Shown here piece by piece: positions 1 through 16,669 of a stretch of DNA of 20,000 nt; position 1 is the stretch's first letter, and each line of letters begins with the position of its first letter. Under the pieces are notes generated by a model that searched no databases, was not told the DNA's origin, and worked only from the letters and a program-made list of their open reading frames with translations. The stretch comes from an uncultured virus (IMG/VR IMGVR_UViG_3300026125_000001) (taxonomy: Duplodnaviria; Heunggongvirae; Uroviricota; Caudoviricetes), in IMG/VR virus record IMGVR_UViG_3300026125_000001; one strand, given 5' to 3'. The translations under genes and the position numbers were made by a program.

Positions 1-1247
1 TTCTTGGTCATGTTAACACCAAGGGCATTTGCCTTTACTGCCGACTCTACGAATACGTTTTCATACTCAAGTTCATAGTAGAGTCCGTTACAAACAACAG
101 AGCCTTGGTCATTAGATTCGATTATGACATAAGCATCGTTGTAGGTTTTGGCGTACTTGTATATATGGTCAGGGAATAACAAAGGCGATATAAGGTTATC
201 TCTGAAAGTCGCCACCTGTTTAAAAGGTCTACTTGTTATATCAATAATATTGAATGTAGAATAGTCTTGCCCTCGCCCTTTGGCCACGTCGACAAACATC
301 ATATAATTGTGCTCGGGGTTTGGCTTTTCGTACACGCAAACTGAGCCTTGACGATAAACAGGATTATCAGCCTTTAGGGATAATAGTTTGTCGCCTGAGA
401 TTAGCGTGTTACCAGCGCCCAAGAAAGAGTTACCGAACTCCTGCATAAACTGCAGTTCTGACGTGTTCTCGATTGTCTGTTTCTTCCATTCTTCATCTCG
501 CCCAGGAACGTCCCACCAGTCTACGCGGAATGGTTTGTAAGAGTTAGTACCCTGAACTGCGCCCTCGTATATCTTGTGGAATGTGTTGCCCAAACCATTG
601 GCGGTAGAAGTAACAATTACCCTTGAAGACTTACCAGAAGATACAACAGGGTAGGTTGAGGTGTAGAACTCAACGTCATTCTCAACGAACGCAAACTCGT
701 CTAGGAACAGTAGGTTAATAGACAAACCACGAATAGAAGAACCTGACGTAGCAGCCGCTAATATCTTCGAGTTGTTGCTGAACTCAATAGAACCTTTGTT
801 GAGCGACTTACATCCTGGCTGTAGAAAGAAAGGTAAGTTCTCGAGCATCAACGTGATGCGCGAAAGCATCTCCCTAGCAGTTGCGCCTTTGTTCGCAAGG
901 ATAGCGATATTCTTTTCAGAATGGAATAATGCGTACCAAAGTAGATAAGCACAAGAACTGATAGACTTACCAGATTGTCGACAAGCCAAAACGATACTAA
1001 ATCTGTTGGAATTAAAATGGTCAAACATCCTCTCTTGATAAGGGTAAAGGTTAAAGGGGACCAAACCCTTATCTAGATGTATTACTTTTAGATATGTGCG
1101 CGCGAAGTAAGCGGGATCCTTCATACACTTAGCGTATTCAGTAATCTCTTCTTTGGTAAAGTTTGTTACAACGCCATCGCGCTTTACATGAGGGTTGCCG
1201 AGATAGTGGTGCTCTCTTGGTGGAACATTAGTCGGTATCTGGCTCAA
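1..1247 (-). CDS. terL: Terminase large subunit (T4 gp17-like), 3' end runs off the window
   Basis: Not in the ORF track; translated by hand. Probable TTG start at 1247 with AAGGA upstream, overlapping the end of terS. Reads MSQIPTNVPPREHHYLGNPHVKRDG...LYPYQ, Walker A (LACRQSGKS), Walker B (LLFLDEFAFV), motif C (VIVTSTANG) and nuclease motif (MFVDVAKGRGQDYSTF). Same frame at both ends. Confidence 0.97.
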   Translation of the reverse strand, partial: MSQIPTNVPPREHHYLGNPHVKRDGVVTNFTKEEITEYAKCMKDPAYFARTYLKVIHLDKGLVPFNLYPYQERMFDHFNSNRFSIVLACRQSGKSISSCAYLLWYALFHSEKNIAILANKGATAREMLSRITLMLENLPFFLQPGCKSLNKGSIEFSNNSKILAAATSGSSIRGLSINLLFLDEFAFVENDVEFYTSTYPVVSSGKSSRVIVTSTANGLGNTFHKIYEGAVQGTNSYKPFRVDWWDVPGRDEEWKKQTIENTSELQFMQEFGNSFLGAGNTLISGDKLLSLKADNPVYRQGSVCVYEKPNPEHNYMMFVDVAKGRGQDYSTFNIIDITSRPFKQVATFRDNLISPLLFPDHIYKYAKTYNDAYVIIESNDQGSVVCNGLYYELEYENVFVESAVKANALGVNMTK

Positions 1248-1572
1248 CTTTTACGTCCTTCATCTTATTAGCTAACATCTTTTGTAGATCTGTCGTAGAA
1301 CCAACAAAAAGGTTGTTATTTGTCACTGGAGCATTTAGAGAAGGGGATGCCTTCTCTTCTTTTTCAATATCTTTCTTTTTCTTTTGAAGGTCCATCAATT
1401 TATCAGTTATGTCTGCGTTTTGCTTAAGCATACCAGCCAATACTTCGAACGCACGCGGGTGCTCGCTCTCGCGTGCGAGCTCCATCATCATTTCAATCGC
1501 CTCTTGCCCTTGTTCCGCCAATCTGTAGTATTGGCTTCGGGCGTATCCGTAATCATCATCAATATCAGACAT
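1228..1572 (-). CDS. terS: Terminase small subunit (T4 gp16-like)
   Basis: 114 aa with DDYGYARSQYY, ARESEHPRAFEV and NNNLFVGSTTDLQKML, typical of T4-like TerS; directly upstream of terL. Confidence 0.95.
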   Translation of the reverse strand: MSDIDDDYGYARSQYYRLAEQGQEAIEMMMELARESEHPRAFEVLAGMLKQNADITDKLMDLQKKKKDIEKEEKASPSLNAPVTNNNLFVGSTTDLQKMLANKMKDVKVEPDTD

Positions 1573-1573
1573 G

Positions 1574-2545
1574 TTAAGACACCGTGTACTCGTTTATAAC
1601 AAAGGTTTGACCGCTAGTGCTTCCGGTTAAGGTTTCACCAACTGTAAAATATCCATCAAGATTATTTATAACCACAGTTGTTTCGTCGGCTTGCTCATCG
1701 TAGGTTATAGATTCTATTCTACCGCCAACCGCACTATCCGCTCCGATTACAACCTCATTATCCGTTACGCCAACGGTTCCTGATACCACAGCAGATATAA
1801 AGTTCTCTGGAGCGATATAGTTAAAGGTCTTGACGACCGAGTAATCGTCAGATGAAGATGACGATATTGGATCTACGACTTGACTGACACCTTGTAGGTA
1901 TGAGTCGATGTTTTTACGGTAGTTGACCAAAGTGTCTTTAATAATTTTAGATTTTACTACCTGACCGAAGAAGTGCACTCTCATAGTAAAATCTAGGGTG
2001 TACATGATCACACGCCTAGTTTGGAAGTCGCTTTCATAGTCGTCATTGATTGTGACACTTTGAAGCGTGATCGGAACGTCAAAAGAATTTTCTACACCGT
2101 CAATCAACTTAGCAGATACTGAGTAAGTCGGTTCAAAGGTCGGTAGAATTTGTTCTAATATTTGTAGAGCGTCATCCTGACTTTTCGCCAAGATGTTAAG
2201 TTGCATCCCTATAATGTAAGGAACGTTACCTATGGTGTCTGCTTCTTCGCCGTCATCAGATAGGCGCAAACGTTGAACCTTGCTGGTCTTTATTTGATTG
2301 TTATACTCAACGCTAGTAATCTCGAAAGACATACGAGGTAGCTTGATTGCTACCTTCTGGTCGGTTAAATCAGCCTGTTGGTCTATACGGGCAAGGAACT
2401 TTTGTTTCGGTCCATAAGCAAGGGGGACGCTAGTGATAATAGATTCAGAACCGCTTTTCCGCATTATATTGATGTTATTGAATACAGTTCCGAATATAGA
2501 AACACTCTTTCGCAAAATACCGTGGTAAAAATGAGACCCAAACAT
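1574..2545 (-). CDS. gp15: Tail sheath stabilizer / tail terminator (T4 gp15-like) with C-terminal extension
   Basis: FYHGILRK..FGTVFNNI, VPLAYGPKQKFLAR, LPRMSFEI and QDDALQILEQILPTF; syntenic between gp14 and terS. Confidence 0.95.
   Translation of the reverse strand: MFGSHFYHGILRKSVSIFGTVFNNINIMRKSGSESIITSVPLAYGPKQKFLARIDQQADLTDQKVAIKLPRMSFEITSVEYNNQIKTSKVQRLRLSDDGEEADTIGNVPYIIGMQLNILAKSQDDALQILEQILPTFEPTYSVSAKLIDGVENSFDVPITLQSVTINDDYESDFQTRRVIMYTLDFTMRVHFFGQVVKSKIIKDTLVNYRKNIDSYLQGVSQVVDPISSSSSDDYSVVKTFNYIAPENFISAVVSGTVGVTDNEVVIGADSAVGGRIESITYDEQADETTVVINNLDGYFTVGETLTGSTSGQTFVINEYTVS
1663..1670 (-). promoter_or_regulatory. T4-type late promoter TATAAATA inside gp15, about 90 nt upstream of terS
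   Basis: Plus strand reads tatttata at 1663-1670, an exact gp55 consensus in the sense orientation; intragenic, so chance occurrence is possible. Confidence 0.6.
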
Positions 2546-3447
2546 TAGAATCCTCCTGGCTCACCGAATGGATTTGCTTCAGAGAAATCCAAAATTTCAT
2601 TAGCTTCTCTCTCAAATGTATCGTTGGCAGCATAAGTTGATTCAGCGCCTGAACCGTCAACACTTCCTAGTTGATTAAACGATACGAGAGTACAAATATT
2701 GTTACCGACAGTAATATTCTGCCCCTTCAAGAACTCATGGTAGAGCCCGTCCGAAGTCTTAACATTAATGACGTTAATTGTAGCGCCACCGCTGATTATA
2801 TCGCTGCGAGAAACTACCTCAGCTGTAATATCTACATCGCTTATAGTTTGAGATACAGTATCGCCAAGGTTGATTGTAGCGCCTTCGATTAGACCCGATA
2901 GGGTTAGTTTTAGACGGGTGTTAAATACCGTTTCGACCGCATCAATGTCATTAATACCAGTTTTGAAAGTTTCTTCGCCAAACTCAAACATAGAACACTG
3001 AAGCTTGTATGTAGGCAAATTACTGAGTTGGTAGAAAGGCGATTCATGCTCAACATGATCAATCTGAAACATTGACTTTGACAGGGGCAAGTAAATCAAA
3101 TCGCCTTCATTTGGACGGATCTGTTCAGATTCCCACTGACCTACTGCCTGTTCCCAACGTCTACGTGAAACAATAAAGGTTGCCTGATCTCGAATTTCCA
3201 GACCGAATTTAGAAAGTAGATTTCCTTCGCCTTCAAACCCTTCGGTATTTTCGATATAAGACTCTATGATGTATGCGTCGTCAAACTGAGACTCAACCGC
3301 CTCTCCGAACACATAATCCCGTTCAACTATATTCCTCGGAAGGTAATAAACGTCTTGGCCATATATCTTCAAAGATTCTATTATTAGATCTTCGTAGAGG
3401 TTTTGTTCAGAGACAACCTTTTGTGAGATGTAAACGCTAGTTGCCAT
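2545..3447 (-). CDS. gp14: Neck protein / head closure (T4 gp14-like)
   Basis: EQNLYEDLIIESLKIYGQDVYYLPR, SKFGLEIRD, RPNEGDLIYLP, VEHESPFYQL and C-terminal ILDFSEANPFG. Confidence 0.95.
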   Translation of the reverse strand: MATSVYISQKVVSEQNLYEDLIIESLKIYGQDVYYLPRNIVERDYVFGEAVESQFDDAYIIESYIENTEGFEGEGNLLSKFGLEIRDQATFIVSRRRWEQAVGQWESEQIRPNEGDLIYLPLSKSMFQIDHVEHESPFYQLSNLPTYKLQCSMFEFGEETFKTGINDIDAVETVFNTRLKLTLSGLIEGATINLGDTVSQTISDVDITAEVVSRSDIISGGATINVINVKTSDGLYHEFLKGQNITVGNNICTLVSFNQLGSVDGSGAESTYAANDTFEREANEILDFSEANPFGEPGGF

Positions 3448-3451
3448 TGTA

Positions 3452-4222
3452 TTATCCTATCATGAAGTCAGCTGGCATTTCGTAGCGTAGCTGCATCTCT
3501 TCTTCGATCTTATCGATTTCTAAATTGGCATCATCGAACATTTGACGTCCATTAAACGTTACGCCACCTGGAAGCAACATGCCGTCAAATTTCATCATGT
3601 TCGTGCCCCACTGACGTTTGATCAATGCAGTCGCATAACGTTTAAGGAACATATCGTTGTAAACGTCAGTAAACGTTTCTGGGTCTACAACTTTACTTCC
3701 CTCAACAATAATCCAATCGCCTTCTTTGAGGTCAGTTTCCCAATCGAGGTATAGGTTAATCCTGTCCATATGGCGGTTGAATACGGTATTGGTTGTCCCA
3801 TTACCGAAAGTCATATTGAGCATTTCAATATAACTTTTTGTCATTGTGTATGATGTCAAATCCATCCAAATACCACCACCGTTGCGGAGTAGGTATGCGT
3901 CGGATAACATCATTTGGTATTGGACATTGAACATACCGCTACCCATACCAACGCCGCCTGCTGTAGTGTTGATAGGCATTACTCGTTTAACAACTTGAAG
4001 TTCTTCCGGAACGGTAATGTATTTGTTGGCGATATCCTCAGCCGTCATCTGATATTTGAAATACGTATTTACGATAGCATCAGAGTGATATTCTTGATAG
4101 AATTGTAGAGCTTCGTCTATACGATCTTCAATTTGGTCTTCGTCTACGTTTATTTCTACAACTGGTGCGCCCAGTTTTCGTAGACAAAAATCAATTAAGT
4201 CTTGTCTTGATGCTATAGCCAT
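3452..4222 (-). CDS. gp13: Neck protein / head-tail adaptor (T4 gp13-like)
   Basis: LIDFCLRKLGAPVVEINVDEDQIEDRIDEALQ, FLKRYATALIKRQWG and LPGGVTFNG. Confidence 0.96.
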   Translation of the reverse strand: MAIASRQDLIDFCLRKLGAPVVEINVDEDQIEDRIDEALQFYQEYHSDAIVNTYFKYQMTAEDIANKYITVPEELQVVKRVMPINTTAGGVGMGSGMFNVQYQMMLSDAYLLRNGGGIWMDLTSYTMTKSYIEMLNMTFGNGTTNTVFNRHMDRINLYLDWETDLKEGDWIIVEGSKVVDPETFTDVYNDMFLKRYATALIKRQWGTNMMKFDGMLLPGGVTFNGRQMFDDANLEIDKIEEEMQLRYEMPADFMIG

Positions 4223-4249
4223 GTTGGTACCTGTTATGATAGTTTACTA

Positions 4250-4257
4250 TATTTATA
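4250..4257 (-). promoter_or_regulatory. T4-type late promoter TATAAATA upstream of gp13
   Basis: Exact consensus in the 36-nt intergenic gap, 27 nt before the gp13 ATG. Confidence 0.85.
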
Positions 4258-4258
4258 A

Positions 4259-4903
4259 TCAGAAATAAACCACGTTACACTCAAGTTCTGTATCGTACGC
4301 ATAATGGCACTGCAGAGTAATCCTGAACTGATCCGGTCCATCAACCTGAGTCCTACCAACCCTATGGACAACATGACCACTCCATTCACTTAGTTTGTAA
4401 TATTCGTAATGATATTGCTTTATTTCATCGCCATCATAATAGTCCAACCAAGTACCGTTTGTTGGTTTCTCGATTATTAGGTTTGCCGACCTTATAGTAC
4501 TCGCGTCAATAGTCGGTCTATATTCTATTATACTTGTATCGGTGTGGAAACCAGGAATATAATTTATTGGTAGATTTATTACATGAAATCCAGGACATGA
4601 TAGAACAGGGTCTATTATGGTCTTTATTCCGCTGCGCTCTTCTATACTACTAAGGATTCTGTCATATATCCACCCAAACTTTTCAATCATCCTATTCTTT
4701 AAATCATAATCCGTTTGTGCGTGATTTTCGTGGTGGTATAATGCCCAACCAAGATGACAGAATCCTTCTTTATGAATGCCGTAAGCGGCATGTAGTTCTG
4801 GGCTAATTTGTTTCCATTCATTACGAAACGATAATACATCTTCCCTTATTTTGAGGCGTTCTTCCTCAGTAATAAAGTCTTCAATCACATTTATCAAATT
4901 CAT
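4259..4903 (-). CDS. 2OG-Fe(II) oxygenase superfamily protein
   Basis: N-terminal VIEDFITEEE, facial triad H120-T-D122...H180 (VVHRV) and a distal Arg (R194, RITLQ). ATGA overlap with the upstream propeller gene. Confidence 0.8.
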   Translation of the reverse strand: MNLINVIEDFITEEERLKIREDVLSFRNEWKQISPELHAAYGIHKEGFCHLGWALYHHENHAQTDYDLKNRMIEKFGWIYDRILSSIEERSGIKTIIDPVLSCPGFHVINLPINYIPGFHTDTSIIEYRPTIDASTIRSANLIIEKPTNGTWLDYYDGDEIKQYHYEYYKLSEWSGHVVHRVGRTQVDGPDQFRITLQCHYAYDTELECNVVYF

Positions 4904-6444
4904 TTTAAATCCGTTGTTATGTCGTTAACGAGTCTATCCACAAGCTCAATTGGGTCAACCCCTTTTATTTCCGTTACCGCAAATCCACCATACCTATATA
5001 ACGGATCGAAAGTACCATCGGTAATCCTAGGTCTGGAGAAAACTACCCTATCTTTATACATATTAATAGAAGCAAAGTCAAAGACGTTAGCATCAAATGT
5101 TATCTCAAAATAAGCGTTGGATGGTCTGTTTATGTAATTTGTGTTTATTTCATAAACACTGCTTCTACTAACGTGATTTGGCGACGCCCGACCTAACCTA
5201 ACAACCTTAACCATTTCATCTCTTGAGTCTTCTGTATACGCTACGATGTTATCACCCAGCGCAAAGTGGTTGAAGTATCGTACCGCATTGCCTGTAGATA
5301 TAGATATTTCATAATCTGGCGCTGTCTTAATACCAGAATCTGTAGCATAAAAAAGAAGTGACCAATTCCTTGGCGTGGTAGCTCCATTTCCTCTGTAACA
5401 AGAAGTAGCTATCAAACCGTTCTTAAAGTCTAATTTCCACCCAAACTTTTGATTTGGATTCGAAATGTCGGTGGTGTCTCCCAGAGATGCAGGCGGAGTT
5501 ATCTTATGCATAAGCCTTTGGTCAGGGTTGCCAGTAGTCCCGACCTGATATGATATACTGTAAATGTATATTGCCTCGCTGGCATTATCAGCTTCATTGA
5601 AAGCGGACATACCAATCGCGATACAACCCCCGTCTATCTTAAACCCCCGATAAGGATCTTCAAGGTTAGCGCCAACTTGAAGTGTTGGTTTTCTGATACT
5701 AATGTAAGGACCGACGTCGTCATTGGCGTATTGAACGTTAGCGGATTCGTTCGAATCCGGTGAAGGGAATCTAAACCATCCCATAAAGGAATTAGCGCCA
5801 CCAATAGCCTGATCCCATACAGGGGAGTATAAGTTCCAACTACCATTAATATATGCGACATCAACAGCACAGCCAATCAAATAATTTGGTGCGGTGTTAG
5901 ATGCTTTAAACGTTTCCACAAGGTTTCCGTCCCAATCATAGTATTTTACGCAACCTTGATAAATATTTACACTGGATGAGTACCAACCTGGAACTCCGAC
6001 GGCAATACCTTCTCTAAACAGCTTTATTGAATACCCAAAAAATGGCGCATCAGCGTAGCCCGAATACCTTGTGGGCTCGTCATCGATTATTGTAAATAAT
6101 CGATTGCCTGTAGTATAATCATAAATGTGGACCCTACCAACATAAGTAGTTCCACCATCTTCAGTGTATAAAGGATCCGACACACCAATGAAATTTCCGT
6201 ACTGGCTTACGTCAAATCCAAAAGTGTTTGAATTAGTGCTGGTGTATGGTATAGTATCAGTGAACCTAGAATATTTCCATTTATACTGAAGATCGCCTGT
6301 TACAACATGATCGGAACTATGGTCGTCTATATCCCTAGCAACGCATTCTCTCCAATAAGGGTGGCTAAACACGCTCCATTCAGCTGTATCTATGTTCCCT
6401 AATGGTTCACCGTTTTGAAAAGAATCTTCCCTTAATTGTGCCAT
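4900..6444 (-). CDS. FG-GAP-like beta-propeller protein C' (514 aa), putative virion adhesin
   Basis: Blade-like repeats FGFDVSQYGNFIGVSDP..GRVHIYD, FFGYSIKLFREGIAVGVPG..GCVKYYD and FGWKLDF; short C-terminal amphipathic helix. Confidence 0.7.
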   Translation of the reverse strand: MAQLREDSFQNGEPLGNIDTAEWSVFSHPYWRECVARDIDDHSSDHVVTGDLQYKWKYSRFTDTIPYTSTNSNTFGFDVSQYGNFIGVSDPLYTEDGGTTYVGRVHIYDYTTGNRLFTIIDDEPTRYSGYADAPFFGYSIKLFREGIAVGVPGWYSSSVNIYQGCVKYYDWDGNLVETFKASNTAPNYLIGCAVDVAYINGSWNLYSPVWDQAIGGANSFMGWFRFPSPDSNESANVQYANDDVGPYISIRKPTLQVGANLEDPYRGFKIDGGCIAIGMSAFNEADNASEAIYIYSISYQVGTTGNPDQRLMHKITPPASLGDTTDISNPNQKFGWKLDFKNGLIATSCYRGNGATTPRNWSLLFYATDSGIKTAPDYEISISTGNAVRYFNHFALGDNIVAYTEDSRDEMVKVVRLGRASPNHVSRSSVYEINTNYINRPSNAYFEITFDANVFDFASINMYKDRVVFSRPRITDGTFDPLYRYGGFAVTEIKGVDPIELVDRLVNDITTDLK

Positions 6445-7943
6445 TATTTAGACCTACCTTTAAACAATCTGTTAAATTTACCGCGAAGCTTTTCTGAGTT
6501 TAAATGCTCAACGCTATATGCGCCTGCGGTTGTATTCGCGACTATGTTGTGCCTGTATACCAACAATCTATATCCGTTAGCGTTAAAATCATCAGAATCT
6601 GCCCCTCCTGTTCCGACGACAAGATATGTCGGAGTAGCCAAAACAATCCTTCCGAAATTATAAGGATAGCTGGGGTGAGTGAAAGTATATTTAAAAACTT
6701 GATCTTCGTTTGAGTTAATACCAGGCTTCAGCCATAAATGAACAGCACCAGTAGTATAATGAGACGAAGCTATTGCCACTAATGTATGATGATTATATAT
6801 GTTCACCTCGTATGTTTGCATGGGTAAATGAGTAGTGGACATACTTTTACCAAATGCACCTGTGGGATACCCAGGCGGAGCCGCGAAATTGTTGGTATAA
6901 ACCGTTCCTGTAGTTGCGTTTGAGTTAAGGTATGTCAACATAACGTTGTCATGAGTGTGATCCGAAATTAAATAATAGCCATCTTGAACTAAGGAATTTT
7001 CTCCAGTATAATGAAGCGCTTTTAAACTAAAATATGGTAAACTCTGGACGAAATTTTCTCCTCCACCACCGATGGTAAAGTCGTCGAATAGACTGACCTT
7101 GTTATAAGGTGTAATACCGCCAGCAGTAAATGTGACCCAGCTGGATGGTGAAAACGAATTCAAATAAGCCGCATAAGGAGATGTTAACTTCCTAGAAAGA
7201 TAAGCAATTTTAGTGGTGGAAATAGCTGTTAATGTACCAGCTACAATGAAATCACTGTTAGTAGCAGTGTGAGTGTATTCGCCAAGGTAGGAAGAACCCC
7301 AACCATCTTCTTTGCCGACCCTATTAATAAGGTAGATATAAATCTTCGATTGGCTGATGGAAGAGATGTAAACTATATTGCCTTGTACAATTAAATCTGA
7401 CCCAAAGTCTGTACTAGAGTCAGGACAAACAAAATGCTCTATTAATTCCCCTGTGGTTAAATCGTACATATCGACATAACCATTGGAATTGGTACTGATA
7501 TCAAAATCTTGGAGTTCGTCGTTAGAAGCTGTTTGTTCTCCATTATGAGCTAGAAAAAGAAAATCTCCGTGTAGATGGGCATTGATTATTCCGGAGTTTG
7601 ATGTAGAGTAGTCGCCACCGACATATGTTTTAACCAAAGCTCCAGATTCAATATCATAAATGTATACAGCACCTGTGAGATTACCGCCAGTGTTTTCGTT
7701 TAATGCGGGTACCATCAACCACCTATCATTAGCTTCAGCATTTGCTGCAAACTGATCGCTGGCTGTGTTCAGAGCGTTAATATTAGGGTTGGTTAGTTCA
7801 TACAGTAAAGTAGGTGCGGCAGTTGCAGTTGCTTGTACAGGTCCCTTTTTAAACCTATTAACGAAATCTGTTGAAGTTTCATTTGAAGGGAGAGCAGCAA
7901 TAGGCTGTCCTCCAACTTTAGTGTTTATTTGTAACTTTGCCAT
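6444..7943 (-). CDS. FG-GAP-like beta-propeller protein B' (499 aa), putative virion adhesin
   Basis: DQFAANAEANDRWLMVPA..TGAVYIYDIESG, GYVDMYDLTTG, FGSDL, FGKSM..TGAVHLW; TAATG-coupled to the next gene. Confidence 0.7.
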   Translation of the reverse strand: MAKLQINTKVGGQPIAALPSNETSTDFVNRFKKGPVQATATAAPTLLYELTNPNINALNTASDQFAANAEANDRWLMVPALNENTGGNLTGAVYIYDIESGALVKTYVGGDYSTSNSGIINAHLHGDFLFLAHNGEQTASNDELQDFDISTNSNGYVDMYDLTTGELIEHFVCPDSSTDFGSDLIVQGNIVYISSISQSKIYIYLINRVGKEDGWGSSYLGEYTHTATNSDFIVAGTLTAISTTKIAYLSRKLTSPYAAYLNSFSPSSWVTFTAGGITPYNKVSLFDDFTIGGGGENFVQSLPYFSLKALHYTGENSLVQDGYYLISDHTHDNVMLTYLNSNATTGTVYTNNFAAPPGYPTGAFGKSMSTTHLPMQTYEVNIYNHHTLVAIASSHYTTGAVHLWLKPGINSNEDQVFKYTFTHPSYPYNFGRIVLATPTYLVVGTGGADSDDFNANGYRLLVYRHNIVANTTAGAYSVEHLNSEKLRGKFNRLFKGRSK

Positions 7944-9326
7944 TTAACGATCCAAATACTTTCTTATGTATATATCTGCTGCTGAAGTTCTTATTGGAAT
8001 TGGAGTTATAGCGCCAGTAAGAGTTCCCGCCCCATTAACGTTTAATCGATCGCCAATGCAGAGAACATCGCCAACGAGAGCCGCGACACTGCCCCTGTAT
8101 AGACTAGAGGTAGCTGAAATTTGGGTACGCCCAGAGTAAGAACCAGTTGGGTCTTCCCTTCCCATTGCGTAAGAGCCCCACATCACCCCACCAATATTGT
8201 ATCGGGTAGTTTTACTAGATTGATAATCGTGGTTTGGACATCCTATAACAAACATGTTATCATTGCAATCCATGTCATATCCAAAATAATCCGGAGCGTT
8301 TGTTAACCCACCGAGGAATGGGCTAGGTATTGACAACCTCGAATCGGAAGATACGTCATATATGTCTACCTTTTCTTGGGTCATGTCAGGTCCGCCCATC
8401 GCTACCATTAAACGGGATCCTCGCATAACAATGTTAAACCCCCAACCATAGTTGTTTGTTTGTAGAGAACTAACATGCTTCCAAAATTGAATGTCCATCA
8501 ATTGAGTTTTATGGTTGTATTCCCATCTGTATATATTTACTCCACCATAATATCCGTCATTTCCTACGGCACTAGGGCTGTATGTAACAGCAATGTATCT
8601 TTCGTTCATAACAATTTTACGAGCGAAATTGAGGGGGTCTGACATTCGATTTAGACCATCTTCAATTTGATCGATCGGGGCGCTGACATTATCTCCAGTG
8701 TATGCGTTAAAAATCTGAAAATACCTTGTGTTGTTTACGCCATTATATTTGCAAATCGCTAGGAATGGACCCCAACCATCCATGTCGACTATTTTATCGT
8801 TTGCTTGTAATGGTAATGTGTGAGTCCATTCCTTACCAGTCTTTAAATCGACAAAATCAACAATACCATCCGAATCTGTGCCCACAACGCTGTAATATCC
8901 AGCAGCAGCATAATGCTCCGTGACAGCTTTCCTCAATGAGTCACCATATAGATGAGAAGAATATGGGTATAATGGGTTCCTAGTGAATAAATGTAATGGT
9001 TTGTTCGTCATTACATCGAAAACAACAGGACCATCTTTCGTTGTGGAATAAGCGTCACTTGGGTCTGTTGAACACATTAGGTAATTATGTGACTTTTTAC
9101 TTGGGGCGACACAAATGTCTTTGGTGTGTTCCGTCACCCCGAAGAAATCGCCTGTAAATGCTGTTTGAGGATATCTGTTGAAGATTAAGGAGTTCATAAC
9201 GTTGTCAAACAATTCTTCTGTGTCATTATGTATGGTCGGGTTCACGTTCAAGGTGTCGCCGACACCTTGATAATTGTATGGGTCAGTGCTCGTTAATCGT
9301 AAACTTGACTCTTTAAGGTCAGCCAT
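7944..9326 (-). CDS. FG-GAP-like beta-propeller protein A' (460 aa), putative virion adhesin
   Basis: GGVNIYRW, WGFNIVMRGSRLMVA, DYFGYDMDCNDNMFVIGCP and RGSVAALVGDVLCIGD; first gene after a late promoter. Confidence 0.7.
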   Translation of the reverse strand: MADLKESSLRLTSTDPYNYQGVGDTLNVNPTIHNDTEELFDNVMNSLIFNRYPQTAFTGDFFGVTEHTKDICVAPSKKSHNYLMCSTDPSDAYSTTKDGPVVFDVMTNKPLHLFTRNPLYPYSSHLYGDSLRKAVTEHYAAAGYYSVVGTDSDGIVDFVDLKTGKEWTHTLPLQANDKIVDMDGWGPFLAICKYNGVNNTRYFQIFNAYTGDNVSAPIDQIEDGLNRMSDPLNFARKIVMNERYIAVTYSPSAVGNDGYYGGVNIYRWEYNHKTQLMDIQFWKHVSSLQTNNYGWGFNIVMRGSRLMVAMGGPDMTQEKVDIYDVSSDSRLSIPSPFLGGLTNAPDYFGYDMDCNDNMFVIGCPNHDYQSSKTTRYNIGGVMWGSYAMGREDPTGSYSGRTQISATSSLYRGSVAALVGDVLCIGDRLNVNGAGTLTGAITPIPIRTSAADIYIRKYLDR

Positions 9327-9371
9327 TATAAATCTCTCTATTATTACTAGCGAATTGCCGCATATTACAAC

Positions 9372-9379
9372 TATTTATA
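9372..9379 (-). promoter_or_regulatory. T4-type late promoter TATAAATA upstream of the second propeller triplet
   Basis: Exact consensus in the 79-nt gap between lipB and propeller A'. Confidence 0.85.
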
Positions 9380-9405
9380 AGGTATCAGCTTTCAAAAATA
9401 TTCCC

Positions 9406-10050
9406 TCATTCAAAATCCCATGACGTTGTTTCTAGTTCTATATCAAAATTAAATGCCTTGGCGAAGTTCTCAATCAGGATAGGCGTTACTTGTTCAACCG
9501 TGATACCCTCAACATAGTCTGACATTCTAGCCGACTTCATACCAATATAGCCACAAGGGTGGATAACTTCAAATCCATCGTTTTCGTTTGTGACGTTGAG
9601 AGAAAACCCCCAAGAAGTCCACATATTATCAATCGAAAGACCAAGAGCGCTTATCTTCTTGTTGTCGTAGTACACGCCTGGAGCAGTTGGTTCCAAGAAA
9701 ACGTCATACATACCAAAATGGTTCAGGGTGTCAACAACGCTCTTTTCAATCAACCTCTCCATACTCATCGGGTCTATATTAGATTTGATCAAATCGCGCA
9801 TGTTCAGATTCATATAGCAAGATATCTGTCCTGGCGCAAAATGAGTTACGCATCCACGCCTGTTAGTTTTTATGATTGGCGTGCCGTCACGAGTAACTTC
9901 GCCAACTCCGTCAAGACCTTCTGTGAACGCCCTCTCGTGTTCAGTAACCCATATTTCATTTTGTTTTTTGGGGAGTTTCTTGAACTCCTCCAATTTATCA
10001 ATAGCATCTTCTATTTTAATAATACCGAGTTTTCTCACATTCAATTTCAT
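9406..10050 (-). CDS. lipB: LipB-like octanoyl(lipoyl)transferase, BPL/LplA/LipB family, divergent
   Basis: Collinear with proteobacterial LipB as recalled: VRKLG, EIWVTEH..FTEG, R.G.VT...PGQ, APGVY, KKISALGL (catalytic Lys132), G.SLNV and IHPCGYIGM (catalytic Cys166). Confidence 0.88.
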   Translation of the reverse strand: MKLNVRKLGIIKIEDAIDKLEEFKKLPKKQNEIWVTEHERAFTEGLDGVGEVTRDGTPIIKTNRRGCVTHFAPGQISCYMNLNMRDLIKSNIDPMSMERLIEKSVVDTLNHFGMYDVFLEPTAPGVYYDNKKISALGLSIDNMWTSWGFSLNVTNENDGFEVIHPCGYIGMKSARMSDYVEGITVEQVTPILIENFAKAFNFDIELETTSWDFE

Positions 10051-10053
10051 AAT

Positions 10054-11679
10054 TTACCTTCCAATCAAATTGTCAATAGATTCCTTAATATTGAAACCGC
10101 CTTTTATGTTGTATGATAATAAACCAGCCCACCTGTCAATATCACTGACAGTAGTCCCTATTCTGTTTTCAGGAGGGACTACGCCCCACATAACAAGCCT
10201 ATCCCCTTGAGCAGCCAAACCAGTCCCCAAATAAAAATTGTCTTCTTTTGCTGCCCTAGTTTCGTCTGCAATAAACCTCGTGTCGAATATCCTAGCAACC
10301 CCGCAATCTATACCATCATTAAATTGTCTCTGATGAGAGACTACGATAGGGGGCGGGTTTGGTATATTCGTGTCGTATATCTCACTTATTGAATACATAT
10401 GAAATCCATGCCCAGTAGCGTTCTTCCATGGATACGCCCCGTAATGAGCGGCTTCACTAATGTCAGCTTCGCCACGCTCGTCTGCTACGATCAGGTAATC
10501 GTCAGTAAATGCTGCCGATTGAAGCTTAAATTTGCCTGCCGTATTATAAGACAAATTCTTTATTAGTTTAAGGTCTAGTTTGAATGAAACAGTAGAATCG
10601 TTTGTGACTTGAAATACATGCACTGATCCATAGACAGTGCCCTTAGAAGAACCTTTAGTTGTATTATCAACTATGGCGATAAGATCTCCTTTAAATGCAA
10701 CGGATACACCGAAGTATCCGTTGGTCGATTGATAACTCGGGCGAGGTACCACAGTGCCCCATAAATCTATTAAAAAAGTTGATGACATAAAGTAATGTGC
10801 TGACGTTGGACAAATAAAGACACCGCCATTGTGACTCATAAAAAACCAATTGCTGGTGAATTTGACATTAACTCTATTAAAGACTGCGCCTGAACCGATA
10901 TAGGATGGGTTAAACATGTTATCAACAGTTGTAGGTGGGAAATCCCCACCAGCAACGTATGAATAACCCCAAGTTGTGTTTCTTTCATTTACACTCAACT
11001 GGACATATGACAACTTATCAGTGTTTGTAGTTTCACCCCATTTATTTTGAGTTAGCACTACCAACACATCATGCCTTTCCCCTGGCTCCAAGGTCGATAT
11101 ATTTCCGGAAGCATAGCGTAAACCGCCATCAGCAACGTCAAACGAATTGCCAAAATATAATACAGCGCTTCCGGAGGGAGCAATCGTGCCCAAAAGTTGA
11201 CCTGTGTACATATTATAGCAGTATATCCTGCCGGAACCGCCTTCTGCGCTACCGTCTCCGACATAGAGTCTACCGTTAATAGCTTTATTTGTTTGCAAAC
11301 CCCAGCGCGAACTAGCGCCAGTTGGGGCAGTTAAAACATGAAGTATATCACCGAAGTGGTAGTCTGAAATATAAATCTTGCCAGCGACGCCTACTTGATC
11401 ATTCTGGACCGTCCAACAACAAAGCATCCCATCAATTAAAACATTACAGGCATTGCCCCTTGTTGTCGCAGTCGAGGTAGGCTCGCGGTGAACTGCGATA
11501 GGCAAGGGTGAGTATCCCAAACGGCTTGTTTCATAATCGTTATACAACGGGCTTCTGTACAGATTGTGTAATGTTGGACCTGTACCATATTCGTTGAGCT
11601 TATCATCCCTTGTCACTACAGTACTGGTACCTGAGGCAGTTTCTATCTGTACATCAGTAGGATTATCAAAAAAAGCCAT
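10054..11679 (-). CDS. FG-GAP-like beta-propeller protein C (541 aa), putative virion adhesin
   Basis: GRLYVGDGSAEGGSGRIYCYNMYTG, YFGNSFDVA, YFGVSVAFKGDLIAIVD..GSVHVFQ and YLGTGLAAQGDRLVM. Confidence 0.7.
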   Translation of the reverse strand: MAFFDNPTDVQIETASGTSTVVTRDDKLNEYGTGPTLHNLYRSPLYNDYETSRLGYSPLPIAVHREPTSTATTRGNACNVLIDGMLCCWTVQNDQVGVAGKIYISDYHFGDILHVLTAPTGASSRWGLQTNKAINGRLYVGDGSAEGGSGRIYCYNMYTGQLLGTIAPSGSAVLYFGNSFDVADGGLRYASGNISTLEPGERHDVLVVLTQNKWGETTNTDKLSYVQLSVNERNTTWGYSYVAGGDFPPTTVDNMFNPSYIGSGAVFNRVNVKFTSNWFFMSHNGGVFICPTSAHYFMSSTFLIDLWGTVVPRPSYQSTNGYFGVSVAFKGDLIAIVDNTTKGSSKGTVYGSVHVFQVTNDSTVSFKLDLKLIKNLSYNTAGKFKLQSAAFTDDYLIVADERGEADISEAAHYGAYPWKNATGHGFHMYSISEIYDTNIPNPPPIVVSHQRQFNDGIDCGVARIFDTRFIADETRAAKEDNFYLGTGLAAQGDRLVMWGVVPPENRIGTTVSDIDRWAGLLSYNIKGGFNIKESIDNLIGR

Positions 11680-11697
11680 TATTTTTAACCTCTATAA

Positions 11698-13014
11698 TTA
11701 TATTCCTGGACCCCTGGACCCTGCTTGGCCAGGATGATTGAGACATCTCAATAAATCGCGTTTAGTTATCGTTCTTGTTGCTCTAACATAGACAACCCTT
11801 CCTGAAGTATCTAGACCATTAGTAGTCCTGTAACCGACCATAGCAACAAAATTTTCAGAAGCAACTACTCCGAATCTTCCAATGCCATCGTTTGTAGATG
11901 GTGTTTCAGCTTTGAACGAAGCGGAATATGTCATCCCCTCTGCAGCCCCAGTAGAGTTCATAGTTAAGTTATATTTCTCGACGACATATCCTGTGGTAGC
12001 GTCGGTGCTCCTACAGACATAATATTTAACACCATCATCCCCACCGCTTGTTAAAGCCCCAATATCAGCATAAGGCGTAGATATAGCTGCGTTGTATATT
12101 GTTGATAAAGGAGAAGTCGGGCGCTGTATATTTCCTAAAGTTACTAAACCTGCCGATATGCTGTTATACACATGGTAAACTAAAGCTAGTGAGCTGGCGT
12201 CTGAAGGGTTTGGACGAATACCAAATGCGTTCCCCATTGCGCCGAGCCTGTTTTGGTTGGTTGGACCCATAAAGGCTATCCCACTCTCGTTAGTTACGTC
12301 CACCTCAAAAACAGAGGCAGGGCTCTGTGTTGAACTCATGTTCGTCACACCCCAGTAATAGTTAGGATTACTTGTGAACCATGTTATAAAAGCAGTGCCG
12401 TCAGAAAAGAACTTATGCGCAGAGGTGCCCCAAGCAGCGCCAGCATTCGCAGGAGCCAGCGCTCTGGTATAATGGACGTTTTGTGTGGCAGGAAGTTTGT
12501 CCGAATAAAACCTAAGTTCATTTTCAGTTTCATATGGCATTATAATAACATTGCCCCAAGAGGTTTGAGATCTTTGGTTTGCGCACCAAACTCCATCGTC
12601 AGCAAAGGCGGTATCACCATAAAAGTCCATCTGCCAAATCAACACTCCAGTCTCTATATCGTAAGTATGAACCATACGCGAGTCTGAGTCTGCAGTAAAC
12701 GTTATGGTCTTCTCATGCAAAGCAAAGGGACCATTGTACATTTGAAATTCATTTACTTTGTGCCCGTTGTGAGTTCTGAATACATGGATAACGCCATTGG
12801 CGAGTACTGCTAAATACGCATCATTCATTTGAATCTCATTAGGAGAGATATCGTCATCCAATATATATAACAAATCATCTTCATTAGCCCAAACTTCGTC
12901 CAGGTGTGTATCAAGAGCCACGTCAAAATCTGTTAGAATTTTGAGGGTCTTTCGAACATTAGCCCCTCCCTCTAGATTGCTCGAACCTGTTACTGATGGT
13001 ACCAAATTCGCCAC
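11698..13014 (-). CDS. Beta-propeller-like protein B (438 aa), putative virion adhesin
   Basis: GTG start overlapping the upstream TAG. Beta-rich blades NDAYLAVLANGVIHVF, VHTYDIETGVLIW and GRFGVVASENFVAMVG. Confidence 0.6.
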   Translation of the reverse strand: MANLVPSVTGSSNLEGGANVRKTLKILTDFDVALDTHLDEVWANEDDLLYILDDDISPNEIQMNDAYLAVLANGVIHVFRTHNGHKVNEFQMYNGPFALHEKTITFTADSDSRMVHTYDIETGVLIWQMDFYGDTAFADDGVWCANQRSQTSWGNVIIMPYETENELRFYSDKLPATQNVHYTRALAPANAGAAWGTSAHKFFSDGTAFITWFTSNPNYYWGVTNMSSTQSPASVFEVDVTNESGIAFMGPTNQNRLGAMGNAFGIRPNPSDASSLALVYHVYNSISAGLVTLGNIQRPTSPLSTIYNAAISTPYADIGALTSGGDDGVKYYVCRSTDATTGYVVEKYNLTMNSTGAAEGMTYSASFKAETPSTNDGIGRFGVVASENFVAMVGYRTTNGLDTSGRVVYVRATRTITKRDLLRCLNHPGQAGSRGPGI

Positions 13015-14333
13015 TATACTTCCTCCAACCTTTCCATAAATATTGAATATGCGTCATCGTTCATAAATCGATTTATCGAATAAAAATTCGCAGCCGACCA
13101 AAACAAATCGGATCCGTACGAATCCAGCTTATTATATCCATAAGCAGTCCCAGTAGTTAATCTTCTATAATCTTGGTAGGTGTTTGAATTCCAATTGAAA
13201 CCGTATATAGCGCCAGGGATCCTAGTTGCTTTAGATGTTACATAATCGGCAGCAGGAGCCCCTATCCAAACGTCCTTACCATTGGTGGCCACAGAACCGC
13301 CAAAAGCATCGACAGTGTTGCTACCGTCTACGTTTGGATTTGCGTAAGTGGTTGAGGTTCCATTAGATAGGTCAATGAATACAGCTTTATCTGCCTGAAA
13401 ATATCCGACAATGAGCTTTTCATTACAAATATCCATACAAGAACCAAAATGGGTGGTTGGAGTAACACCCGCAATCGCTTGATCAGTATAAGAAGCAATC
13501 GTTGCGTTCAATTGCCTAACTCGTTTTTTTGTTTTTCCGGTTGAAGCAGTCATAACATAATCGTAATGCGCAATGTTTACAGCCGCAATTGTATCTGAGA
13601 CCCTTGAAGCAACAACATACTGACTGCTCATAACAAGATTTCCTGCGTAATGAGCAGTCGTTGCCGACATCTCCAACGCCCCGAGCGAATCGCCTGTGAA
13701 CAGGTTGACCATCTCAACCATCATTTTATTGCTATAGCTTGGATGCTGCGGGCAGAGGATAGCAAGATTAGCGCCATGAATAGCTATGGCTTGACAATCC
13801 CCGTTGTAGGGGTTTGGAATAGTAATTGTCCACTCATCGCCACTGAGTATATCAGTAACCAGAACTGAACCGCTAGAAGAACCTAACACGCCCACCTTTA
13901 AAACGGCAACATATCGATCATAAGCATCGAACACATATTGTATAGGGGCATAGTTGCTGGCTGTTGATGTGCCAGGAGCATATGATATATGTGCTCTGAC
14001 GTCTTTCACGAACACTATTTGTCCAGTGCTCTTGGAAAACACGACTATTTTTTCAGTTGCAGTCTGTATACCGCCTAAACAAAAGATGTAGTCCTTTGTT
14101 ACCCTGAACTCGCGATTGGCGTAACTAGTAATGGCTGATGACGCATAATAACAAGTCTGTGGCATGGTATTAGTGGTCAACAAGGCAGCTTTTTTGTTAA
14201 ATTTACCATCAGGAACCAATGTTGTGCCATTATTTACCATGATCGCATTGCGAGGGGTAATGGGTTCATTCGGTCCGTTTAGACCTGGTCGCCTTGATTG
14301 AAAATAGCTCCCGATTCCGAGTTTTCCGCTCAT
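13014..14333 (-). CDS. FG-GAP-like beta-propeller protein A (439 aa), putative virion adhesin
   Basis: HFGSCMDICNEKLIVG and DAFGGSVATNGKDVWIGAPAAD..PGAIYGF, a near-canonical FG-GAP blade. Confidence 0.72.
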   Translation of the reverse strand: MSGKLGIGSYFQSRRPGLNGPNEPITPRNAIMVNNGTTLVPDGKFNKKAALLTTNTMPQTCYYASSAITSYANREFRVTKDYIFCLGGIQTATEKIVVFSKSTGQIVFVKDVRAHISYAPGTSTASNYAPIQYVFDAYDRYVAVLKVGVLGSSSGSVLVTDILSGDEWTITIPNPYNGDCQAIAIHGANLAILCPQHPSYSNKMMVEMVNLFTGDSLGALEMSATTAHYAGNLVMSSQYVVASRVSDTIAAVNIAHYDYVMTASTGKTKKRVRQLNATIASYTDQAIAGVTPTTHFGSCMDICNEKLIVGYFQADKAVFIDLSNGTSTTYANPNVDGSNTVDAFGGSVATNGKDVWIGAPAADYVTSKATRIPGAIYGFNWNSNTYQDYRRLTTGTAYGYNKLDSYGSDLFWSAANFYSINRFMNDDAYSIFMERLEEV

Positions 14334-14551
14334 TACCGCATAACCTTCATGTCATTTGTGTATTTTTCTATGTCTGCTTTATATTGGTCAAGGTCAAAAT
14401 CGTCACCTTCTTCCCAACGGTTGTAACGATCCCAAGCGAACATATCTGGACCAACGAAGTAATCTTCTGGTTTTAGTGGACCATTGTAATTAATAGTAAA
14501 CTTTTTAATGACTTTATTTTTCTTAATTGCCAGTATACTTTTTTCAAACAT
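14333..14551 (-). CDS. Small hypothetical protein (72 aa), possible fibre adaptor or chaperone
   Basis: SD-like GGTGAG upstream, 8 nt after the fibre stop, TAATG-coupled to propeller A. Function inferred from position only. Confidence 0.65.
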   Translation of the reverse strand: MFEKSILAIKKNKVIKKFTINYNGPLKPEDYFVGPDMFAWDRYNRWEEGDDFDLDQYKADIEKYTNDMKVMR

Positions 14552-14559
14552 ATTCTCAC

Positions 14560-16467
14560 CTATGATTTTTCAATAATATTTTTCAATTCATCTATCTGTT
14601 GTTGCTGTTCTTTAATCGCTTCTATCAATAAACCGACCATATTTGAGTAAGCAACAGCATAGAAACCTTCGTCATTTTCTGTCACCGCTTCAGGCAATAC
14701 TTCAAGCACTTCTTGAGCAATGACACCAGTAGAACGGACGCCACCCATGTTATCCTTGACATAAGTATAACCACCAATTTTCTTAACCTTATCTAGAGCA
14801 TTTGTTATTGGCTCTATTTCGGATTTCTGACGGATATCTGAGTTTTCGATTAAAGTGGCATTGTTAATTGTAACGTTTGTGTTGTTGACCTCAAGACGCT
14901 CAGATCCGCCAGTAACAACACGCCACTGATCAGCTGCATGGAATTGCAAGTATGTGTTAGTGTCTCCAGTAGAAATGATCTGGTCGTCTACATACAGATC
15001 AGTAACGCCATTAATATCACCTGATACGGTTAATCCACCACGTATATTACTGGCTGCGCCTGCATCAAAAGCGCCTGAGTTCTGAACAGTGAACTGACCC
15101 GCAGCACCACCAGCGGTGCCTGTATTACCAGAAGTAGTATTATTAATAAAGCGAGCTATATCACCAGTTGACCTTTGGTTAATATATAACACAGCATTAG
15201 TACTGCTCCGGTTTACAAATAGATAATCATCACCTTGTACTGTTGTGTTGTTCAGTACAGCATAGTCACCTGCTGCTTGAGCACCTATTTCAGCTAGAGT
15301 CCAAGATACGTCCTCAGTACCGTTAACAGATTTACCAGTAGATCCTATAGTGAGGGTTCTGCTAGTAGTCCACGAAGCAGCGGAAGCAGCGGCACCTGAA
15401 CAAGATGAGGAAACGTTCACCTTCTTGAATTGAATATCGGGCTGTTTTAGGTAGATAGAACCTGTAAAACCAGTCCAGTTGAGTACAACTACACTCATAA
15501 AACCATCAGCGGGTGCAGTGTATGACCGACTGAAGTTAGTCCATGATGTGCCTATGGTACTGTTTTCATACCAACCTGAGTCGCCAGAACTGCTTTCTTG
15601 GACAAATGAATAAGTTGCGCTACCTGATACGTGAGTTTTACCATTCGGAAGGCTTGAGCCATTCCAGAAATATATCCTAAAATACACACCACTGGTTGCT
15701 GCTGCTGAACCTTTCGCTTGTATGTTGATATCTACCTGATCACCAGACTTCATACGTATTGCTTTGAAAATAGCACCACCTGAATTATCAGCTGCGTTCT
15801 TTAATTCTACAGCATCTTGGGTGGCATTCCAGACCACATTAGTTTCGGTAGCATCGCTGTATCCTGGAACCCATCCTAATGCTCGAGCGATAGATTCGTT
15901 TGATTCTGCTTCAGTATAGTATCGCCCGTCATGAGTATGGCTATCATTACCAACAGCAGTGGTAATGCTGATTGAACCATTAGACGCTACCGTAGTTGAA
16001 CCTGTTACATCACCCGTTAATGCTACAGAATCCCCAGACTGGGTGGCTGCAGTATTCAACGCAGCAATATCAACACCATCAACAGTACCAGTTACAGCAA
16101 TGTTACCAGCCACTTGTACAGTACCAGTTACACCAATGTTACCAGCCACTTGTAGCTTATCTGTTCCGTTATCAATAGCTGTGCCAACAAGAACATTACC
16201 ACTAAATTCAGCAAGTCTAATAATACCAGTATCATCTACTTCTATCGAAGGAATACCCGACACATCATTAACAGAGAAGATCGTTCCGGATAAATCGTCG
16301 GATATTGAGAACAACTGACCAGCAGAACCGCTGAACGAAAGTGTTCCATCGTCAAGGACAGTCATCGTAACGGGGTTATTGTCTCCACCAGTGAATACAA
16401 TATTCGGATCGGCTGTAGTTGATCCTCTATTCGGTGTAATTAAAATATTCTTATCTGCGTCTGCCAT
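14560..16467 (-). CDS. Tail fibre protein with C-terminal peptidase S74 intramolecular chaperone
   Basis: Gly/Thr/Ser-rich shaft and fibre motifs NDSHTHDGRYYTE and VSWTLAEIGA. C-terminal SDIRQK...GVIAQEVLEVLPEAV...VAYSNMVGLLIEAIKEQ plus coiled coil is the S74 signature. Confidence 0.9.
   Translation of the reverse strand: MADADKNILITPNRGSTTADPNIVFTGGDNNPVTMTVLDDGTLSFSGSAGQLFSISDDLSGTIFSVNDVSGIPSIEVDDTGIIRLAEFSGNVLVGTAIDNGTDKLQVAGNIGVTGTVQVAGNIAVTGTVDGVDIAALNTAATQSGDSVALTGDVTGSTTVASNGSISITTAVGNDSHTHDGRYYTEAESNESIARALGWVPGYSDATETNVVWNATQDAVELKNAADNSGGAIFKAIRMKSGDQVDINIQAKGSAAATSGVYFRIYFWNGSSLPNGKTHVSGSATYSFVQESSSGDSGWYENSTIGTSWTNFSRSYTAPADGFMSVVVLNWTGFTGSIYLKQPDIQFKKVNVSSSCSGAAASAASWTTSRTLTIGSTGKSVNGTEDVSWTLAEIGAQAAGDYAVLNNTTVQGDDYLFVNRSSTNAVLYINQRSTGDIARFINNTTSGNTGTAGGAAGQFTVQNSGAFDAGAASNIRGGLTVSGDINGVTDLYVDDQIISTGDTNTYLQFHAADQWRVVTGGSERLEVNNTNVTINNATLIENSDIRQKSEIEPITNALDKVKKIGGYTYVKDNMGGVRSTGVIAQEVLEVLPEAVTENDEGFYAVAYSNMVGLLIEAIKEQQQQIDELKNIIEKS
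16082..16153. repeat. 36-bp in-frame tandem duplication in the tail fibre gene
   Basis: acagtaccagttaca(g/c)caatgttaccagccacttgt twice, 35/36 identical; encodes QVAGNI(G/A)VTGTV twice. Confidence 0.95.
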
Positions 16468-16495: not shown

Positions 16496-16669
16496 CTATT
16501 TATATCTTCGCTTGTGAGCAATATACAGCTTCTTAACTTCGATATCAGATAGAGCTTCTTTATAAATGTGGTATGGATCAATCTCTCCGTTTGAAGAAGT
16601 CTTGGATTCGGGGTCTAAAATAAAGGTAGACTTCCTATTCGGAAGTTTTGATCCAGAATGTGCTGCCAT
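16496..16669 (-). CDS. 57-aa miniature LamG-paralog (N- and C-terminal modules only)
   Basis: Below the ORF-track cutoff. MAAHSGSKLPNRKSTFILDPESKTSSNGEIDPYHIYKEALSDIEVKKLYIAHKRRYK. TAATG overlap with the upstream gene; both ends resemble those of the neighbouring LamG-like proteins. Confidence 0.7.
   Translation of the reverse strand: MAAHSGSKLPNRKSTFILDPESKTSSNGEIDPYHIYKEALSDIEVKKLYIAHKRRYK
16497..16504 (-). promoter_or_regulatory. T4-type late promoter TATAAATA upstream of the tail fibre gene
   Basis: Exact consensus 29 nt before the fibre ATG; coincides with the last codons (TAT AAA TAG) of the 57-aa ORF. Confidence 0.85.

Follow-up and report, generated by a model that had tools for sequence, protein, structure and literature searches.

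Two late units of three putative beta-propeller genes and an enzyme, one of them a divergent LipB, in an uncultured T4-like phage

Introduction

Only a few chemical modifications of phage particles are known. Phage-encoded glycosylation reportedly places glycans on the capsid and tail tube of mycobacteriophages (PMC12619734, citing Freeman et al. 2023), a host-made methylation of a tail protein is needed for adsorption (PMC13445384), and cyanophage transferases are read as modifiers of the host wall or of DNA (PMC12801897). Here we describe a 20,000-nucleotide stretch from an uncultured virus (IMG/VR record IMGVR_UViG_3300026125_000001; the whole stretch is called the window below), the late region of a T4-like phage, in which two consecutive units each consist of three genes for putative beta-propeller proteins and one enzyme gene. 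The enzyme is a divergent member of the LipB acyltransferase family in unit 1 and a 2-oxoglutarate (2OG)-Fe(II) oxygenase in unit 2.

The reading we favour, which we regard as evenly poised between right and wrong, is that the units encode appendages of the virion that evolve fast and may be pseudo-trimers, together with enzymes dedicated to the acylation or hydroxylation of phage proteins. It draws on gene order, late motifs, folds, catalytic residues and an order conserved in a second phage, from which we infer the trimer, the virion location and the target of modification.

Two units between a tail fibre gene and gp13

All genes of the window described here lie on the minus strand. Read in that direction, three LamG-domain genes are followed by an S74 fibre gene, a gene for a 72-amino-acid (aa) protein, the two propeller-enzyme units, gp13, gp14, gp15 and gp16, and the start of the terminase gene. 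Both units, A-B-C-LipB and A'-B'-C'-oxygenase, stand between the S74 fibre gene and gp13, and all eight open reading frames (ORFs) have the lengths given in an earlier, model-made note on this DNA that had pointed out the layout. The best cultured matches of the window's gp13 are only 39-42% identical to it. In minus-strand order the features are:

16497..16504, minus: TATAAATA late-promoter motif ahead of the fibre gene, where unit 1 (fibre, 72-aa gene, A, B, C, LipB) probably starts
14560..16467, minus: 635-aa tail fibre with a C-terminal S74 intramolecular chaperone (Pfam PF13884, E 1.5e-14; PHROG fibre families); homologue in the relative G002
14333..14551, minus: 72-aa protein without a known family; its homologue of 67 aa (34% identity, E 1.4e-7) opens the relative's LipB unit
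13014..14333, minus: A, 439 aa; FG-GAP/integrin-alpha-like beta-propeller by model, with a C-terminal helix and an invariant loop lysine, K368
11698..13014, minus: B, 438 aa, GTG start; probable beta-propeller (Atlas model)
10054..11679, minus: C, 541 aa; probable beta-propeller (blade profile; FG-GAP_2 E 0.025, below cut-off)
9406..10050, minus: divergent LipB-family acyltransferase, 214 aa; K132 and C166 kept, with G65R, H71F, G72A and H147W relative to the cellular consensus
9372..9379, minus: TATAAATA late-promoter motif in a 79-nucleotide gap; likely start of unit 2
7944..9326, minus: A', 460 aa; paralogue of A with a gp36-like start
6444..7943, minus: B', 499 aa; probable beta-propeller (blade profile) with a gp36-like start
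4900..6444, minus: C', 514 aa; probable FG-GAP-type propeller (blade profile) with a gp36-like start
4259..4903, minus: 2OG-Fe(II) oxygenase, 214 aa; mainly viral family, WelO5-like fold; H120, D122, H180 and R194
4250..4257, minus: TATAAATA late-promoter motif ahead of gp13, placed as in the relative
1228..4222, minus: core T4-like genes gp13, gp14, gp15 and gp16, with gp17 next (Pfam/PHROG); these anchor the locus

The genes within each unit overlap or lie at most 18 nucleotides apart, as the earlier note had seen, with gaps of -1 (A-B), 18 (B-C) and 3 nucleotides (C-LipB) in unit 1 and of 0 (A'-B'), -1 (B'-C') and -4 (C'-oxygenase) in unit 2. The longer gaps from LipB to A' (79 nucleotides) and from the oxygenase to gp13 (36 nucleotides) both contain the octamer TATAAATA, which we take to be the T4 late promoter, and the late position claimed for the units is borne out. 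The claim that the octamers mark unit boundaries needs rewording: the sites are where they were placed, but they start the next units (A' and gp13), so that unit 2 appears to have its own promoter, and the five copies in the window are not above chance (mean 2.31 in shuffles; 16 of 200 shuffles reach 5). Three of the four minus-strand copies fall within short intergenic gaps, and in the relative described below all six plus-strand copies stand ahead of late genes. Unit 1 is likely read together with the 635-aa fibre and 72-aa genes from the shared site at 16497. Another minus-strand copy (1663-1670), inside the end of gp15 and about 90 nucleotides upstream of gp16, is a possible internal late promoter for the terminase genes. 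Scans for sigma-70 promoters and terminators gave matches at chance level only.

Single contigs span both units in all three freshwater-metagenome runs, with no variants inside the units; these runs may be the window's own source and are not independent of it. The terminal enzymes of the window (9406-10050 and 4259-4903) and of the relative (contig L001, 4952-6256) are all 214-215 aa long despite two unrelated folds, probably by coincidence, since both enzyme families are of that size.

The triplet and LipB stay together in a relative

Among 80 gp13 loci kept from viral contigs, L001 and L002 stand out, with a gp13 that is 70% identical to that of the window. They are two contigs of one phage, G002 (L002). 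Ahead of its gp13, G002 has TATAAATA, then a small gene (67 aa), a triplet of genes for 437, 418 and 455 aa, two LipB copies and a second TATAAATA, and the first member of its triplet aligns with A (E 3e-6, about 26% identity over a part). Because the order of small gene, triplet and LipB is kept, the link between triplet and LipB is conserved, though in these two phages only. We favour a coupling of the two since this order has persisted although the LipBs of the phages are only 31-32% identical, compared with 85% for the portal and 80% for the terminase. (The window phage, G001, covers window positions 1-14943 and downstream core genes only.) LipB follows the triplet and not gp13, as in the window it sits behind the triplet, 5 kilobases from gp13. 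Across the three triplets of the two phages, each unit has exactly three putative propeller genes, with an A-family member first. The earlier note proposed a search of related genomes for triplets followed by enzymes; it yielded the triplet with LipB in G002, and a triplet followed by an oxygenase was seen in the window only.

The family of the 72-aa gene accompanies the LipB units and is absent from the oxygenase unit. A role like that of acyl carrier protein (ACP) was considered for its product and rejected, there being no conserved Ser in the 72-aa and 67-aa sequences.

Searches for further members returned little. In the 52 further non-redundant gp13 loci that extend at least 5 kilobases upstream, there is no run of three consecutive 400-560-aa ORFs, and outside G002 the ORFs of the first 254 gp13 loci contain no match to the blade profile (below) or to LipB. 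In viral contigs, A found no relative; LipB found none as a single sequence and the G002 phage only when used as an alignment or motif; and the A-family motif, as a pattern spaced to suit A and A' though not the A of the relative, gave no hit. The LipB alignment had no match in metagenome contigs, and the LipB motif hit 36 stretches in genome contigs, none in the phage clade. A clade-specific gp13 pattern recovered G002 alone in metagenomes and no further close relative among the viral-contig matches listed. Word-index protein searches with A' and LipB returned only the queries themselves, and the oxygenase returned one homologue of 39% identity. LipB matches were also present in six deposited phage records whose membership of the phage clade is not established; the one region inspected lies at a prophage end beside attR. 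As these searches miss distant relatives, the rarity of the arrangement is not established.

Elsewhere in G002 (contig L303, 1-3987), a Thr/Asn-rich repeat protein is followed by four enzyme-like genes (302 aa with no assigned family, GT29-like, methyltransferase and GT8), a candidate glycosylated fibre unit. We count this second structural gene with enzymes behind it in favour of our reading.

A LipB with a remodelled loop and pocket

The identification of the unit 1 enzyme as LipB stands: it scores 109.1 bits against TIGR00214 (cut-off 83.55), without reaching four PRK equivalog cut-offs. We compared the three phage LipBs (the window enzyme and the two G002 copies) with 26 cellular LipBs from 28 loci. 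The catalytic Cys/Lys dyad (K132 and C166 in window numbering) is kept in all three, as are 21-22 of the 28 columns conserved at 90% or more. Two residues invariant in all 26 cellular enzymes, G65 (RGG to RRG) and H147 (to W or F), are changed in all three phage enzymes, as is G72. H71, likewise invariant in the 26 cellular rows, is Phe in the window LipB, an assignment that depends on an ungapped register. According to one study, LipB requires its RGG loop to be fully active, and the positions of its two histidines contact the lipoyl group in LplA (PMC9307952). Because the changes fall at positions tied there to activity and the acyl pocket and are shared across the phage clade, with the dyad kept, we favour a different job for the phage LipB.

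In trees the phage LipBs form one group (support 100/96, and 95 after two long cellular rows were dropped) near the beta/gamma-proteobacterial LipBs, on very long branches. Shared rare residues (R65, H70 and N81) also argue for a common origin. One reading of this history, from alignment and tree, would be a single capture, then a change of donor or acceptor, plus a duplication in G002.

A hydroxylase-type oxygenase

The window oxygenase has no 2OG Pfam match by hidden Markov model, but the earlier identification holds on other grounds. Its Atlas model (predicted local distance difference test, pLDDT, 0.82) has the double-stranded beta-helix fold of 2OG-Fe(II) dioxygenases, with template-modelling (TM) scores of 0.83-0.91 to mainly viral clusters and 0.77-0.85 to WelO5/2OG-FeII_Oxy clusters, and the HxD...H triad (H120, D122, H180) and the 2OG-binding R194 are invariant in all four aligned sequences. 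In WelO5-type halogenases, Ala or Gly replaces the metal-binding Asp; as Asp122 is kept, the enzyme is of the hydroxylase type. Judged by its model and motif, this hydroxylase-type enzyme belongs to a family that is common in viruses.

Tailoring enzymes, passengers or chaperones

T4-like phages from water often carry modifying enzymes ahead of gp13. In a scan of 147 hand-chosen ORFs (of 261 candidates) from 43 other gp13 loci, ten loci carried glycosyl-, sulfo-, methyl- or carbamoyltransferases, 2OG oxygenases or a tryptophan halogenase just upstream. Given these loci and published virion glycosylation (PMC12619734), the earlier note's view that no such system had been described was overstated for the general layout; the new element is the LipB acyltransferase. 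Within the literature covered, which leaves out subscription journals and supplements, we found nothing that ties LipB to phage fibre or auxiliary genes and no description of such propeller triplets. Upstream of gp13, seven loci (L009, L016, L066, L067, L169, L196 and L207) are densely packed with genes for glycosyl-, sulfo- and carbamoyltransferases and for nucleotide-sugar enzymes; in L169 these lie directly behind an RCC1 propeller gene.

The enzymes could instead be passengers in a recombination hot spot, next to triplets that are indeed virion appendages, and act on host or small-molecule targets. LipB might then aid the lipoylation of host dehydrogenases or acylate a host surface molecule, and the oxygenase might act on a metabolite or nucleic acid. 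We hold this account, general and specific alike, to be possible but on the unlikely side. The LipB score above the TIGR00214 cut-off and its place near beta/gamma-proteobacterial enzymes speak for it, as do clear metabolic genes before gp13 in other phages (for example, heme oxygenase and bilin reductase) and a distant oxygenase homologue among replication genes in P-HM2. Against these stand the late motif and the overlapping or near-overlapping genes, a LipB-triplet link that is kept at 31% identity, the duplication of LipB in G002, and the changed invariant residues and very long branches, which are unlike a metabolic replacement gene.

Another possibility is that the terminal proteins now serve as assembly chaperones or structural caps, their catalysis being incidental or lost. 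They occupy the slot directly behind presumed adhesin genes that gp38 holds behind gp37 in T4, and the loop needed for full LipB activity (PMC9307952) is altered. The retained dyad and most conserved columns in all three phage LipBs, the metal triad and Arg of the oxygenase and its homologues, and the presence of two unrelated enzyme folds in the same slot make this improbable in our view.

Predicted propeller folds and positions within the triplets

The first members of the two window units are homologous (A and A', 25% identity, E 5e-9, z about 19); the others are no more alike than chance (B and B', z 1.5; C and C', z 1.9-2.6), with no positional homology, and no long DNA repeat was found between units 1 and 2. 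The term 'duplicated' in the earlier note therefore holds for A and A' alone. The A-family first members of all three triplets share DxFG-(14)-PxxD...SK[AT]T, and K368, in a poorly modelled loop between blade strands, is their only invariant lysine.

The AlphaFold2 model of A, from a three-row alignment (pLDDT 52, predicted TM score 0.61), has four-stranded blades from about residue 50-75 to 414 and then a helix (426-438). It matches seven-bladed propellers, including several integrin alpha chains (4um8_A, Z 23.2, root-mean-square deviation 4.2, 321 residues aligned). Its nearest viral models include FG-GAP proteins and proteins annotated as virion structural or fibre, which leads us to favour a virion appendage. 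A itself falls below the Pfam FG-GAP cut-off, and the relative's A has FG-GAP_2 above it. None of the six window triplet proteins has a PHROG fibre match.

A phmmer search with A' against 1.84 billion representatives found six FG-GAP repeat proteins, whose 83 repeats were used to build a blade profile. A scores 30 bits and A' 27 (the latter partly circular, as A' was the query that found the six proteins), followed by C' at 20.0, B' at 9.7 and C at 8.7, set against shuffle maxima of 2-8 overall (1.7 for C', 4.2 for B' and 2.0 for C). B (1.9 bits) is not above its shuffles, and neither is the relative's C. The low-confidence Atlas model of B (pLDDT 0.48) has TM scores of 0.49-0.55 to PQQ/WD40 propellers, and single-sequence AlphaFold2 gave no fold for C' (pLDDT 30). 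Of the three propellers per unit that had been claimed, the predictions thus support A well, and A' well by homology, B and C' moderately, and B' and C weakly.

A second clue to the nature of the triplets lies in their N-termini. In T4, gp36 is a trimer bound by monomeric gp35 at the long tail fibre knee (PMC3004832), and the T4 record gives its start as MADLKVGSTTGG. Six of the nine triplet proteins, comprising the three of unit 2 and the three of G002, match M[AS]x[LIV][KQRN], a pattern found in 16 of 714 background ORF starts, and five of the nine are in the top 0.5% of those starts when scored against the gp36 start over 15 residues only. These starts fit three different chains that would fill a trimer-built site and dock as a three-chain unit, and suggest a joint of the hinge type, not the tip of the neighbouring S74 fibre. 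C-terminal amphipathic helices, with two of nine in the top 5% of background, are not taken as support. A complex prediction of the relative's A and B with the first 140 residues of its C (score 0.00, mark 0.32) is informative neither way. The three-chain heterotrimer and its place on the virion are thus presumptive.

A further alternative is that each propeller works on its own as a monomer, forms homo-oligomers or serves as an intracellular scaffold, and that three is an accident of tandem expansion. This would suit the unalignable B and C positions, the single FG-GAP propeller genes of other phages (S-TIM5) and one chain that holds two propellers and has a C-terminal tail like theirs (P0005), but the strict threes led by an A-family gene, their absence from the 52 other loci and the gp36-like starts leave it little chance.

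Neighbouring regions

The window's LamG stretch (16669-19645, minus) holds three tandem overlapping LamG-domain genes (219, 379 and 394 aa) whose starts are related. In contrast to the propeller units, which are fixed, it is mixed in the population, with depth dropping to about one third and some contigs skipping parts. The fibre gene contains two tandem 36-nucleotide copies that are 97% alike (16082-16153). Behind the S74 fibre of G002 (contig L002, 1200-4480) lie a 128-aa gene and a gene for a 964-aa protein with weak dockerin, MAM and WD40 matches, a likely fibre-tip adhesin for which the window has no counterpart at that place. After the portal gene, G001 (contig L304, 1-4242) carries a 396-aa collagen-like ORF, ORFs of 118, 141 and 529 aa and another TATAAATA, where G002 instead has gp21-gp22.

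Discussion

In the reading we favour, each unit would be a late-expressed module that combines a variable appendage of three different beta-propeller chains with an enzyme that tailors a phage-made protein during assembly. The three chains would align their gp36-like N-termini and short C-terminal helices along one axis, and the resulting pseudo-trimer would dock at a hinge-type site. By means of its Cys/Lys dyad, the LipB derivative would take an acyl chain from host acyl-ACP or acyl-coenzyme A and put it on a lysine of the module, with A-family K368 or the 72-aa protein that travels with LipB as candidates. The oxygenase would hydroxylate a residue of unit 2. The likely purpose would be to tune adsorption or the surface properties of the particle. 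A more specific version, which we consider doubtful, is that a LipB captured from the lipoate pathway was rewired into an enzyme dedicated to fatty-acylating protein lysines, which lipidates a heterotrimeric adhesin head of three propellers, in modules with swappable chemistry (acylation or hydroxylation). This would amount to lipidation, by a phage-encoded enzyme, of a structure that recognises the host.

Several observations pull the other way. The triplet-LipB link is known from two phages only and the oxygenase-triplet link from one genome, and the few oxygenase homologues have no known context or lie outside the fibre region, as does the distant one near primase and nrdA in P-HM2. Because enzymes before gp13 are common without such triplets, position alone may reflect hitch-hiking. 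For LipB, the tree analysis warns of long-branch attraction as a possible cause of the phage grouping, the altered loop and pocket might also reflect a less active enzyme, no acceptor resembling a lipoyl domain is apparent, and K368 occurs in A' too, in a unit that lacks LipB. As for the trimer, unit 1 has no clear gp36-like starts (A and C are not above background and B is in the top 4%), the starts elsewhere are suggestive only because the pattern was picked after inspection and the chains are paralogues, and no gp35-like hinge gene was recognised in the window.

A LipB in a viral genome would ordinarily be put down as support for metabolism. Here the gene is late, is linked to a propeller triplet in two phages and encodes an enzyme with an altered loop and pocket, all of which suggests another role. 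Were this LipB to acylate a virion protein, fatty acylation would join the short list of particle modifications with which we began, and a small enzyme whose acceptor specificity is new would be at hand. Many 'auxiliary metabolic' enzymes encoded near fibre genes may then act on the phage itself. LipB and its candidate acceptors are small and could be tested in E. coli.

Comparison with known systems

The phage LipBs share with the bacterial octanoyltransferase (TIGR00214; M. tuberculosis 1W66) the fold family, the Cys/Lys dyad, PGQ and most conserved columns. They differ, at about 30-35% identity to cellular LipBs, in a loop that reads RRG instead of RGG, a pocket His replaced by Trp or Phe and, in the window enzyme, a second pocket His replaced by Phe; the phage gene also lies in a late fibre region, with no lipA or lipoyl-domain gene in view. 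With WelO5-like and viral 2OG-Fe(II) oxygenases, the window enzyme shares fold, HxD...H and Arg, and it differs in keeping the Asp. At the T4 long tail fibre knee, the likeness is confined to the first 10-15 residues of six triplet proteins; gp36 is a homotrimeric beta-fibre, whereas here three different globular propellers (the body of A being a propeller by model) would take its place, with no gp35 homologue recognised. FG-GAP phage proteins, such as the 407-aa S-TIM5 protein annotated as virion structural, have the same blade motif and fold, but S-TIM5 has a single regular-repeat gene and the window has degenerate triplets coupled to enzymes.

Another parallel is mycobacteriophage virion glycosylation, in which phage-encoded transferases are proposed to decorate the phage's own structural proteins (PMC12619734). 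There the glycans have been observed; here an acyltransferase and an oxygenase, with propellers as their presumed targets, are known from genes alone. The window and G002 units likewise have phage-encoded modifying enzymes linked to structural genes. Fibre regions equipped with tailoring enzymes are an emerging theme, and to this theme the remodelled LipB acyltransferase adds a new element.

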